DNA from: an uncultured delta proteobacterium
GTDB lineage: Bacteria > Desulfobacterota > Desulfuromonadia > Desulfuromonadales > BM103
Direction: 5' to 3'
Length of the DNA stretch: 64,000 bases
Assembly: GCA_963715335.1 (NCBI GenBank)
Contig: CAVQRZ010000023.1
Location: 32,001 to 96,000 of the forward strand
A program made the position numbers and the translations under genes. How positions within the stretch are numbered: position 1 is the first letter of the stretch; each line of letters starts with the position of its first letter. The notes beneath the pieces are model-generated. The model saw only the letters and a program-made list of their open reading frames with translations. It was not told the origin of the DNA and made no database searches. Below, in pieces: positions 8,391 to 54,623 of this stretch.

Positions 8391-9027
8391 CGGGACGCGA
8401 GTTAATCTGTTGCCCTTGATTGATGTCCTCTGTGATTTAAAGACAAAAGCAAGACCGGCGGGTCGCGTCCCTCCGGTCTTGCTTTTATCATCTAAAATTA
8501 AAAACAAAGCAGAACCCGGGGGTCGCGCCCCCCGACTGCGCCTTACTCTTTTGCTAGCCCAAAAGAGTAAGAGAAAAGGGCCTGCGCTGCGCTGGGCATG
8601 TCTGGCTCGGAGTAGCGGCAACCTCAATCCGGATACTTCTAAACGATCAGGAGCCTACGCTTCCCCCGCAGGAGCCGAGGCTCTTGAGAGCCTCTCCTGC
8701 TGTGAAGACTTGGTAGGTAGGGGATGTTTTGGCTTTTCCCCTGTAAGTCGCACGGCAAGGTCAGGCCCTTTAACACAGGGCCGGATCCCCAGTACAGCAG
8801 GTTCTTGACGTCACAGAAATCCGGCCAAGGAGATGCCCTCCGCAAGGAGAAGGCACTTTTGCATACTTTTGTTGCCGGACAAAAGTATGGCGTCGGGCGG
8901 GACGCGACCCGCCGGTTTTAGTCTTAAGAATCCGATTTTACTCTTAGACATAAAGGATGAGGGCAACAGATGAACCATCTGTTGCACGCTCTATCATAAA
9001 TTCCGGCTGAACCTTGTCAGCACCCTG
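8391..9027 (-). mobile_element. Composite non-coding repeat, copy A (inverted relative to copies C and D; left end rearranged)
   Basis: Aligns in reverse complement with 15736-16373 and 32790-33381; hairpin at 8961-8985, half hairpin at 8401-8415, end TTGTCAGCACCCTG. Confidence 0.9.
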
Positions 9028-13848: not shown

Positions 13849-14102
13849 GACCAGCTGACAAAGGCCAGCCGGATTTCACGATAGAGAGGGCAACAGATGG
13901 TTAATCTGTTGCCCTCTTTCCTTTTCTTGAAATGCTTAAAAGCAAAACCGGCGGGTCGCGTCCCGCCAGACGCCATACTTTTGTCCGGCAACAAAAGTAT
14001 GCAAAAGTGCCTTCTCTTAGCAGAGGGCTATAAACGTTCTCGGAATTTCTATGGCTTTAAGGGAAAGCAGAGGAGACGAGTCGGCCCGTTACATGGGGCC
14101 TC
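13849..14102 (+). mobile_element. Composite repeat, copy B (left part only; strongly diverged after ~14028)
   Basis: GCTGACAAA end, hairpin 13885-13917, first inner hairpins almost identical to copies C and D, GGCCC..GGGCC hairpin retained. Confidence 0.85.
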
Positions 14103-14341
14103 GCAGCACAGCTCTCAATATGGTGTGGCAAGTTCACACTGAGGAGACATCCTGCAACCGGCAGGTACGGAACTTAAGCCCTTGAATCTGAGCGACACTT
14201 AAAATCAAGTATCCCGATTAAAATACAAAAAAACCAAACCGGCAGTTTTGTATACTGCCGGACGGCATAACCTTGTATTTTTTTGCCAGTCAAACAGCAA
14301 CATGCTATCCTGCCGCAAATTTCACAGAGAGTCTCTGCATC

Positions 14342-15229
14342 ATGCGTTATTGGCTGGAATACATCCCTTTTCTTACCATTGCAACGATCATACGCCTTTT
14401 GCCCCGCGGCGCCGCCCTGGCCCTTGGCCGGCAACTGGGTGCCGCAGGGCGGCACCTGCAGCCGAGACGGGTAAAAATTGCTGACGATAACCTGCGCCAT
14501 GCGTTCCCGCAAATGTCCCGGGAAGAGAGAGAGAACCTCGTGAAACGGGTTTTCCGTGACTTGGGGCTCGGCTTCATCGAGATGCTCCGTCTCGACAAGT
14601 TTCACGGCAAAGATGGTCTGGAAAAATTCTTTACTATTGAAGGGATTGAACACGTCCATGAAGCGCTGGCGTTGGGCCGCGGATGTATTCTCCTGACCGG
14701 GCATCTTGGCTTCTGGGAAGCCGGCAACTACGTCTTCCCGGTACTCGGCATTCCTACCGGAATTGTGGCAAAACCGATGAAGAACCCCCTGGTGGATGCA
14801 TACTTCCGGCGCATGCGCGAAGCTTATGGCGGCTACATTATCGACACTCACAAAGGCGCAAGAAGGATCTTCAAAGCCTTGCAGAACAATCACGCGGTCG
14901 GCATCCTTATGGATCAGCATATGCCACGCAGCCAGGCGGTCCGCGTGCCGTTTTTCGGCCGGCCGGCCTACACCACACCGATCATCGCCCAACTTGCCAT
15001 GAAGAATCAGGTACCGATCGTTCCGGCCTTTGCATACCGTAATCCTGACAACACATACCGGGTCAAGGTGTCGCCGCTGTTCTTTCTTAAGAAAGATCTT
15101 TCCGACGAGGGGATTCTCGCCAATACAGCACTCATGACAACGGTAATTGAGAATGGTATCAGGGAGGATGTCAGTCAATGGTTCTGGGTCCACCGCCGTT
15201 GGAAACACATGAAAAAAGATGCCGAATAA
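14342..15229 (+). CDS. lpxL: Lipid A lauroyl/late acyltransferase (LpxL/HtrB family)
   Basis: HLGFWE, MDQ...VPFFG, QWFWVHRRWK; start placed at ATG 14342. Confidence 0.9.
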   Translation: MRYWLEYIPFLTIATIIRLLPRGAALALGRQLGAAGRHLQPRRVKIADDNLRHAFPQMSREERENLVKRVFRDLGLGFIEMLRLDKFHGKDGLEKFFTIEGIEHVHEALALGRGCILLTGHLGFWEAGNYVFPVLGIPTGIVAKPMKNPLVDAYFRRMREAYGGYIIDTHKGARRIFKALQNNHAVGILMDQHMPRSQAVRVPFFGRPAYTTPIIAQLAMKNQVPIVPAFAYRNPDNTYRVKVSPLFFLKKDLSDEGILANTALMTTVIENGIREDVSQWFWVHRRWKHMKKDAE

Positions 15230-15695
15230 TCTTCCGCCTTTCCATATCGTACTGATTGAACCGGAGATCCCGCCGAACACCGGAAATATCGCCCGGCTGT
15301 GCGGGGCCACCGGCAGCATACTGCACCTGGTCGGAAAACTCGGTTTTTCGATCGACGATAAACACCTCAAACGGGCGGGGCTGGATTACTGGCAAGCGAT
15401 CGATATTCGCAGATGGGAATCCTTTGCCGAACTGCAGGCCGCGCATCCTGACAGCCGGTTCTGGTACACCTCGAAAAAGGCTACGAAAACTTATTTTCAG
15501 GCAGCTTTCGAGCCCGGCGACTTTCTGGTCTTTGGCAAGGAAACCCTCGGCCTCCCAGAAGACCTCCTCAGTGACAACAGCGAAAGCGCTATCCGGATTC
15601 CGATTAAGAACCCGATCGTGCGCAGCCTGAACCTGTCAACCGCAGCAGGAATTGTGCTCTACGAAGCGTTGCGGCAGACCGGGCAAGTCGGTTAA
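15219..15695 (+). CDS. trmL: tRNA (cytidine34-2'-O)-methyltransferase
   Basis: PEIPPNTGNI, RAGLDYW, FGKET, RSLNLS. Confidence 0.97.
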   Translation: MPNNLPPFHIVLIEPEIPPNTGNIARLCGATGSILHLVGKLGFSIDDKHLKRAGLDYWQAIDIRRWESFAELQAAHPDSRFWYTSKKATKTYFQAAFEPGDFLVFGKETLGLPEDLLSDNSESAIRIPIKNPIVRSLNLSTAAGIVLYEALRQTGQVG

Positions 15696-15735
15696 CAAGT
15701 CTTGCCCGCAGCCTGGGGCACTCAATAGAGCGCCT

Positions 15736-16373
15736 CAGGCTGCGGAAAAAGTTCAGATTTCATGTATAGAGATGGCAACAGATGGTGAATCTGTTGCCCT
15801 TTTTCCTTTTCTTTAAATCTTAAAAGCAATACCGGCGGGTCGCGTCCCGCCCGACGCCATACTTTTGTCCGGCAACAAAAGTATGCAAAAGTGCCTTCTC
15901 CTTGCGGAGGGCATCTCCTTTGCCGGATCTCTGTGACTTCAAGAAGCTGCTGTGATGGGATCCGGCCCTGTGTCAAAGGGCCTGACCTTTCTGTGTGATT
16001 TACCAGGGAAAAGCCAAAACAATTTCTACCGACGCAAACCTCCACAAAAGGAGAGGCTCTCAAGAGCCTCGGTTCCTGCGGGGGAAGCGTAGACTTTTGA
16101 TCGTTTAGAACGTTCTGCATTGAGGTCGCCGCCACTCCGAGCCAGACATGCCCAGCGCAGCGCAGGCCTTTTTCTGCTTACTCTTTTGGGCCAGCAAAAG
16201 AGTAAGGCGCAGTCGGGGGGCGCAACCCCCGGGTTCTGCTTTTGTCTTTGTTTTCCAGAGAACAAAAGCAAAGGGCAACAGATGAACCATCTGTTGCCCT
16301 TAGTTTCATAAAAACTCCACTTGCCAGGCAAAAAAACAGACCCCGCATCGGTGCGGGGTCTGTCAACAATCTG
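15736..16373 (+). mobile_element. Composite repeat, copy C (most complete, 638 bp)
   Basis: Ends CAGGCTGCGGAAAAA and TCTGTCAACAATCTG; hairpins 15774-15798 and 16271-16301; flanks share CAATAG(A/G)GCGCC. Confidence 0.92.
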
Positions 16374-16412
16374 ACACGCCCCAATAGGGCGCCATTTTTA
16401 ATGGAGCTGAGC

Positions 16413-32789: not shown

Positions 32790-33381
32790 CGGAACGTTCA
32801 ACCAGACTTCACGACAGAGAGGGCAACAGATGGTTCATCTGTTGCCCTGGTTCCTTTTCTTGAAATACTTAAAAGCAAAACCGGCGGGTCGCGTCCCGCC
32901 CGACGCCATACTTTTGTCCGGCAACAAAAGTATGCAAAAGTGCCTGCTCCTTGCGGAGGGCATCTCCTCTGCCGGGTTTCTGTGACTTCAAGAACCTGCT
33001 GTAATGGGAATCCGGCCCTGTGTCAAAGGGCCTGACCTTTCTGTGCGATTTACCAGGGAAAAGCCAAAACAATTACTACCGACGCAAACCTCCACGAAAG
33101 GAGAGGCTCTCAAGAGCCTCGGTTCCTGCGGGGGAAATGTAGAATCTTAATCGGTTAGTATGGTCTGAATTGAGGTTGCCGCCTTGACGCGCCAGACATG
33201 CCCAGCGCAGCGCAGGCCTTTTTCTGCTTACTCTTTTGGGCCAGCAAAAGAGTAAGGCGCAGTCGGGGGGCGCAACCCCCGGGTTTTGCCTTTGTCTTTG
33301 AATTCTAGAGAACAACAGCAAAGGGCAACAGATGGTAAATCTGTTGCCCTAAACTTCATAAACACTCCACCTGACAGGCAA
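32790..33381 (+). mobile_element. Composite repeat, copy D (outer ends eroded)
   Basis: Hairpins 32821-32847 and 33323-33349; inner module closely matches copy C. Confidence 0.92.
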
Positions 33382-54485: not shown

Positions 54486-54623
54486 CGGATTGTTGACAAA
54501 CCCCGCACGTGATGCGGGGTTTGTTTTTTTACCTGGCAGGTGAAGCTTCTATAAAGCATGGGGCAACAGATGGTTAATCTGTTGCCCTCCTAAACATCAA
54601 TGCTGAAATTTGTCAGCAGCCTG
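54486..54623 (-). mobile_element. Composite repeat, copy E: empty shell (138 bp, one hairpin, no inner module)
   Basis: Ends CGGATTGTTGACAAA and TTTGTCAGCAGCCTG; arms match the outer arms of copies A, B and C; hairpin 54561-54587. Confidence 0.85.

Follow-up and report, generated by a model that had tools for sequence, protein, structure and literature searches.

A three-layered intergenic repeat of a Desulfuromonadales bacterium: a palindromic cassette within a putative IS1182-type MITE

The intergenic element designated copy C raises two questions: what a repeat without a gene of its own is built from, and how it came to be dispersed. It lies in a window of 64,000 nt, a term used here for the whole stretch of DNA that was analysed, taken from the genome (G000) of an uncultured bacterium of the Desulfuromonadales. 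A first-pass annotation had described copy C as an end motif, a spacer, a palindrome (H), an inner part, a second H, a further spacer and a hairpin, and this layout was borne out (Table 1). The inner part measures 473 bp, the last hairpin overlaps the right end of the element, and the right arm is an imperfect inverted copy of the left arm. A 21-bp hairpin duplication that flanks copy C had been missed. The left 21-bp flank corresponds to one hairpin at the empty site of the relative G001 and to two direct copies in the relative G002.

Folded as DNA, copy C has a z of -12.4. The stop-free frames of the copies (147 codons in C, 138 in A and 90 in D) differ from one another and none of the three ORFs tested had a Pfam match, in agreement with the earlier statement that the element holds no credible ORF. 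An Rfam search returned nothing at the gathering score (best 26 bits vs. 41, on the terminator hairpin), and the plasmid and phage collections gave just one 39-bp and one 32-bp weak match. With respect to the surroundings, an ORF of 398 codons that lies between B and C (14174-15370, - strand) is conserved in four same-genus genomes and has no NCBIfam or Pfam match, and an L20-Deltaproteobacteria leader is also present in the window. Elsewhere in the genome there are approximately ten copies of another repeat, which we take to resemble the cyclic di-GMP riboswitch (C9:14700-16240, C21:61080-62120, C16:32500-32920 and C2:880-1060).

Table 1. Features of copy C and of the four related copies in the window
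Feature	Coordinates	Strand	Details
Left copy of duplicated 21-bp target hairpin, decayed	15715..15735	+	Terminator between trmL and homoserine dehydrogenase
Shell L end: IS1182-type terminal repeat and spacer	15736..15772	+	Consensus comparison
Palindrome H, left cassette tip, loop GGTGA read inward	15773..15799	.	Loop polarity
A/T-rich linker and left arm	15800..15915	+	Hairpin 1 15834-15851, hairpin 2 15858-15885, closing stem; folds
Cassette core, main type	15896..16165	+	Internal hairpin 15961-15985; other cores replace the main type at other sites
Right arm and linker	16148..16272	+	Hairpin 2' 16177-16206, hairpin 1' 16213-16232; folds
Palindrome H, right cassette tip	16273..16299	.	Loop is the reverse complement type of the left H
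Shell R end: spacer, subterminal hairpin 16335-16364, IS1182-type terminal repeat	16300..16373	-	Profile match
Right copy of duplicated target hairpin	16374..16394	+	Window reading and orthologous sites
Copy A: L end, H, cassette, extra arm stub, H remnant; R end lost	8391..9027	-	
Copy B: L end, H, left arm, second core type, decayed GGGACAC-type palindrome at end	13849..14215	+	
Copy D: decayed L end, H, cassette, H, truncated R spacer	32790..33381	+	
Copy E: 138-bp empty shell, single H (54561-54587)	54486..54623	-	

The repeat is real and abundant, and it is composed of three nested layers: a shell, the palindrome H and a cassette. Across the 3.30-Mb assembly (43 contigs) it occupies 82 loci that span 37.3 kb, or approximately 1.1% of the genome, a count that takes in two diverged arm-only loci and two adjacent loci that are probably one element. 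A few copies were perhaps counted twice since near-identical flanks occur on different contigs (C15:1417 / C28:1108, C14:67167 / C37:14461 and C6:118393 / C13:9630), which fits the 6.9% contamination or strain mixing of the assembly. Both shell ends are found at 15 loci, one at 27, and none that is recognisable at 40; the arms number 151, and the main core type has 55 copies that are nearly complete (at least 230 of 270 nt covered). Exact H occurs at 45 sites and the reversed pattern at none, while a search at up to four mismatches gave 105 matches compared to one in 1.9 Mb of shuffled DNA. Convergent genes flank 38 of 77 loci, compared to 340 of 1945 intergenic regions (p = 5e-11, with crude gene calls). 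The public sequencing runs are assembled contigs, one of which skips 15694-16402; the sole RNA run shares 5% of words and was uninformative.

All five copies named in the first-pass annotation were found, and its boundaries required some correction: copy B extends beyond 14102 to about 14215 with a second core type, and only C and E are complete shells, A being without its R end and D without both true tips. Comparison with orthologous sites in the relatives G001 to G004 demonstrates that the nested parts are separable, as had been proposed, with empty, filled and solo forms all in existence. At site C, one hairpin and no element is found in G001, while G000, G002 and G004 carry the element between two hairpin copies. 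Site A is empty in G001, G003 and G004, and in G002 has the cassette reversed and an R end. Site B has a different arrangement in each of the four relatives, and site D has an L-type right end in G002 and an R-type left end in G004. At site E, G003 and G004 have one terminator and no element behind the same gene, and G002 has a filled shell with two H; the site C6:20911 is, like A and E, empty in some relatives. The polymorphism that the annotation had asked to be looked for is therefore present at both levels: the shell is present or absent, and the cassette is either there or represented by a single H.

A search for DUF772 transposases in the family identified four loci with ends that match those of the shell, and the complete IS1182 protein scores 487 bits against NF033551 (cut-off 270). 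The left-end consensus is CAGGCTGCTGACAAAGTTC for the shell and CAGACTGCTGACAAAGTCC for the IS1182 element; at the right end, it is CAGATTGTTGACAAACCCC plus a hairpin for the shell and CAGACTGCTGACAAACCCC plus a hairpin for IS1182 (both IS1182 consensuses being from 80 metagenome relatives). A profile of the shell R end matched IS1182 right ends with E-values down to 2e-7 (36 matches in the 80 loci). Of the earlier remark that the outer ends recall IS1182/IS5-type termini, the IS1182 half stands, as a specific clade is matched at both ends. The terminator-like hairpin noted at the right end is indeed a hairpin, and its origin is the IS1182 element's own subterminal hairpin. The search that had been recommended for a transposase flanked by the same ends succeeded for the shell ends (IS1182, in relatives) and gave none for H among the loci examined.

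Shell and IS1182 element also share a target. The flanks of IS1182 copies fold at -8 kcal/mol or lower in 111 of 117 cases compared to 25% of shuffles, and those of the shell in 39 of 57 cases in this genome compared to 25% of windows behind genes (24-25% for the controls taken together). Direct repeats of a whole hairpin flank three IS1182 copies from genomes (18 bp at L215, 27 bp at L217 and 31 bp at L219) and, with a length of 20-30 bp, six of the 46 metagenome copies with both flanks; the other 40 show no duplication by these tests and have a different hairpin on each side. For the shells, a threshold was set at the 99th percentile of mismatched flanks. Complete shells exceed it in 7 of 15 cases in this genome and in 15 of 34 across all loci fetched, the direct repeat being better than the inverted one in 11 of these 15, while 19 of the 34, copy C included, fall below. 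The absent duplications, of IS1182 and shell alike, are likely due to collapsed assemblies of the multicopy IS and to decay.

Another genus provides a plain 141-bp MITE of the IS1182 element that is devoid of H (L403), as well as filled shells with near-exact repeats (L392, L393, L397 and L413). Shell ends are also swapped at H, with L-L and R-R forms in existence. With matching terminal inverted repeats, no gene, dispersed copies, the same hairpin-target signature and empty orthologous sites, the shell has the attributes of a MITE and, on the evidence of its sequence, is assigned as a putative non-autonomous member of the IS1182 clade. The partner transposase is not in this 43-contig assembly. 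Of 233 genomes from the order, only 10 contain a relative, and within the genus the gene was seen only as an 85-residue fragment (88% identical) at a contig end of G003. The shell does not explain all of the spread, since there are the 40 loci without a shell end and a shell-less polymorphic site, C19:124636.

The inner cassette is tipped by H, which is polarised: of the 78 H linked to an arm, 73 have loops of the same polarity when read inward. In cases of loop variation between genomes, the paired H of an element are mostly still reverse complements of each other. H, linker and arm together form an imperfect inverted repeat of approximately 130 bp. Among double changes in the H stem, 22 keep pairing and three do not, and there are 128 one-sided changes; palindromes are extended into the flanks in 35 of 143 H compared to 12% expected. 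An explanation of the inverted loops as an inverted target duplication was rejected, as the loops sort mostly by genome and not by locus. A T-run lies inward of H, and H is accordingly scored as a terminator whichever side a transcript comes from. Every layer would give a hairpin and a T-run to transcripts from either direction, and the element is thus likely to act as an insulator.

H is also found behind the same few genes that are paired differently in different genomes (L048, L052, L071, L094, L098, L107, L153 and L158), as if marking rearrangement breakpoints. Read from their C-termini, these genes are putatively gapA, nikR, metX and those for a cytochrome c and a thioesterase. At L102:1420-1610 and L061:50-180, H is the centre of a long palindrome, with an R-H-R shell and approximately 45 bp of flank inverted across H. 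Just downstream of a solo H, L048:1545-1665 is a small element with IS5-type ends that is absent at the orthologous L114.

The cassette takes either orientation within the shell (18 to 22 overall): the L end faces the left arm in 12 cases and the right arm in 14, and the R end does so in 6 and 8. Between G000 and G002 it is reversed at sites A, C and C6:20911, and at site E an empty shell with one H in this genome is a filled one in G002, indicative of cassette turnover that is independent of the shell. At C19:124636, which is shell-less in three genomes, G000 has H-cassette-H while G001 and G003 have one H with opposite loop directions, and no target duplication is found; further genomes from the family likewise have H-cassette-H at places where no shell was detected. 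Cores at five orthologous sites are 69-81% identical, less than paralogues in G000 (medians of 86-89%) and less than the flanking segments (about 85-93%). In a tree built from 37 cores (19 from G000 and 18 from G002 loci and look-alike loci; bootstrap not fully settled), the genome label changes three times compared to 12.6 when shuffled (0 of 500), and orthologous pairs do not group. The cassette sorts by genome rather than by site and is homogenised within each genome.

The arms attract insertions of their own: an IS481-like element (C6:1218-2566 of G000) and a 593-codon DUF772 gene (L214) are each inserted at or into arm hairpin 2. The IS481-like element was considered as a mobiliser and discarded as a passenger, being inserted in an arm. 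Directly outside the first hairpin of the arm, 6-bp CAAAAN runs are found at L436, L437, L438 and L440, the last of which also has a 34-bp tandem repeat.

The layers differ in their spread, as judged from genome sets that are samples with many incomplete members. Copy C has matches in 53 of the 61 genomes compared, which represent 19 of the 24 other families of the order, and outside the genus these are mostly arms. Of 43 further genomes from the family, 21 have exact H, and of 189 genomes from other families, none does; records with exact H are mostly titled Desulfuromonadales, Geobacteraceae or Deltaproteobacteria. The shell R end is found in 13 of 44 family genomes and is strong only in this genus and one neighbour. 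The right arm was not found in 300 other genomes of a phylum sample, a weak result with two candidates scored per genome, and the viral contigs gave no match for the arm pattern. The earlier description of a two-tier system must be replaced by one of three layers with the arms as the oldest.

Taken together, these data are probably best explained by an IS1182-family MITE that took up an older palindromic cassette, the turnover of which is driven mostly by host recombination. The IS1182 transposase, acting in trans now or formerly, would have moved 140-bp empty and 640-bp filled shells into terminators. Cassette swapping and apparent flipping would be ectopic gene conversion among the approximately 80 copies, seeded in the arms; since the arms are near-symmetric, conversion could proceed in either orientation. 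A solo H may arise by slippage or recombination between two H. Host recombination is the simplest account of flipping and swapping in the inner layer and requires no new enzyme. However, it leaves the arrival of cassettes at shell-less sites unexplained, and plain RecA conversion does not obviously predict the strict loop polarity or the flank-extended palindromes.

A different reading, tentative and rather unlikely, gives the cassette an enzyme of its own. The cassette would then belong to an undescribed, order-wide class of large palindromic units, with copies inserted, flipped and overwritten in place; within the genus it would also ride the IS1182 MITE into terminators, and H would mark breakpoints of gene order. 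The search for such an enzyme gave no transposase among the 58 ORFs looked at (of 92, at 30 loci) next to arms in other genera, and neither H nor an arm is present within the 80 IS1182 loci. A second IS5/IS1182-like gene on contig C5 was rejected, as its ends are different.

More specifically, the cassette could be a giant unit resembling a REPIN or TIR dimer, with a TIRYT (HUH Y1) enzyme that cuts at H-type palindromes and the IS1182 shell as a later vehicle. We regard this as doubtful, despite several points of similarity. The half-units are arranged as doublets (inward or outward), in tandem or singly, and in this resemble the REP/TIR dimers of Di Nocera 2013 (PMC3733652). Palindromic doublets or clusters at gene 3' ends are shared with TIRtrons/TIRYT and REPIN/BIME (PMC3733652; PMC6006769, subclass 2.1) and, in the available parts of these reports, some TIRs are self-complementary; Y1 genes of the TIRYT kind are present in this genome. 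The TIRYT genes of the family are flanked by 24-27-bp palindromes that are similar in build to H, and both kinds of palindrome extend into their flanks above chance. At 5 of 151 arm ends (with approximately five looser cases), H gives way to GGGACAC-type palindromes, and these do conform to the TIRYT motif, GGGGWSAS; an intermediate GGGGCAACAATAC form is present at an orthologous site in G004. The lack of a target duplication at shell-less C19:124636 also accords with a Y1 enzyme.

The remaining observations speak against this reading. H starts with GGGCAAC, which does not fit GGGGWSAS, and its foot lacks the GTAG/GTGG that is the rule for REP hairpins (Quentin 2018, PMC6006769), the flank bases of 143 H being AA, GA, TA and CA. 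The units here measure 200-230 bp compared to 20-40 in TIR/REP systems, as given in the available parts of these reports. In the genome collection, for which IS1182 was not among the queries, the 80 H loci listed had no Y1 gene at a distance of up to 1.5 kb from H. Conversely, no H or arm flanks the Y1 genes at 51 loci, nor at the 50 examined out of more than 300 matches in a second set that partly overlaps the first. TIRYT has no match in the four same-genus genomes that are rich in the repeat, and the Y1 query gave none in the viral contigs. The first-pass suggestion that H recalls the REP sequences of RAYT enzymes is, so far, unsupported. The two Y1 genes of this genome were themselves rejected as mobilisers of H, being flanked by GGGACAC palindromes instead. 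Around these two genes (C9:53600-75300 and C10:22200-41500; L001 and L002), TIRYT palindromes of this type are found at many gene boundaries, and the two regions have the same neighbouring sequences in a different order, like shuffled cassettes.

There is a very slim chance that the shell was moved by an IS5-family element of this genome (C6:3385-4730). This element encodes an intact 359-aa transposase and its ends, CAGGCTGTTGAAAAAC, are identical to the shell L end at 13 of 15 positions. However, its target repeat is the 4-bp TTAA and it is devoid of a subterminal hairpin, a relative of it (L188) has a CTAG flank, and both the shell R end and the hairpin-duplicating habit match the IS1182 clade instead.

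It is highly improbable that a tyrosine recombinase uses H as its core site (10-7-10 or 11-5-11), with the cassette as an inverton. H does have symmetric arms about an asymmetric centre, with centres that are inverted and matched within an element even where the centre differs between genomes. In contrast, the only two genes of the phage integrase family in the genome encode proteins of 300 and 309 aa, the size of XerC/XerD, from which their identity was taken; no such gene lies beside H among the loci seen, and inversion alone would not produce core replacement.

A structured RNA reading of the cassette is unlikely, and the least probable explanation of all is a non-coding RNA under functional constraint with incidental copies: the multi-branch fold is very stable as RNA (z = -9.4) and the arm hairpins are conserved across the order, but paired columns show no strand preference (449 G-T vs. 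418 A-C in an alignment that holds some copies twice), the cassette has a random orientation, no promoter-like site and no Rfam family, and it is turned over quickly at orthologous sites.

Several known systems share features with the element, as far as the available parts of the cited reports describe them. Members of IS1182 target terminator hairpins (Furi 2016, PMC4923244, also citing Siguier 2015). IS1272/TnSha1 of staphylococci, like the clade identified here, belongs to the DDE family NF033551 and uses terminator hairpins without a fixed sequence; it deletes part of the hairpin with no duplication (PMC4923244), whereas this clade duplicates the whole hairpin directly and the shell is gene-less. 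MITEPye1 of Paracoccus yeei is, like the shell, non-autonomous with IS1182-like ends and is thought to be mobilised in trans, but it has 1-3 copies, 4-bp target repeats and no nested cassette (PMC11578231). BOX of Streptococcus pneumoniae is likewise modular and MITE-like, with a variable interior and presumed movement by an IS in trans; its modules are in tandem, whereas this element has an invertible cassette with its own ends (PMC3184786, PMC10969869). From the same bacterial group, the MITE Chunjie of Geobacter uraniireducens is 178-235 bp and A+T-rich with 21-bp TIRs and 9-bp repeats (PMC3184786, PMC10969869), and is set apart by this description alone.

The closest likeness of the inner layer is with Pcar_R1001-R1028 of Pelobacter carbinolicus (Aklujkar 2012, PMC3543383), a family of 28 copies listed without function or enzyme in the available parts of that report. 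By eye, it has the same two-hairpin arm end, with the motifs of the right arm (CTGCTTACTCT...AGAGTAAGGCG...GGCGCRACCCC), and its copies are also intergenic and in tandem. Unlike the cassette, it has one arm per 230-bp unit, a different core, no H and no IS1182 shell. Geobacter genome papers mention multicopy repeats in general terms in the parts available (PMC2996986, PMC2700814). A motif search of 12 of the 19 supplements of PMC2700814 and 12 of the 15 of PMC2996986 gave no match, although gapped alignments could hide one. The available parts of two reviews of bacterial MITEs (PMC10969869, PMC3184786) contain nothing of this layout, and those of PMC9208149 nothing specific. No description of the nested element was found in the literature covered, a scope that leaves out most subscription papers.

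The link from the shell to an IS1182 clade is a new contribution. The outer layer is an IS1182-type MITE, as judged from its ends, with an enzyme family that is now identified, and the novelty lies in its nesting and in a cassette that flips and is self-homogenising. With the shell, a transposase clade that apparently reads hairpin shape and copies the whole hairpin would gain a concrete pair of enzyme and substrate, and the shell would also be a case of an IS1182 MITE that carries 500 bp of a foreign repeat as cargo. The cassette makes up about 1% of the genome, turns over faster than the surrounding genes and yet has a structure that is conserved across a metal-reducing order. If host recombination suffices, the cassette offers a clean example of how a dispersed repeat in bacteria undergoes concerted evolution; should it require an enzyme, it would represent a new mobile system.
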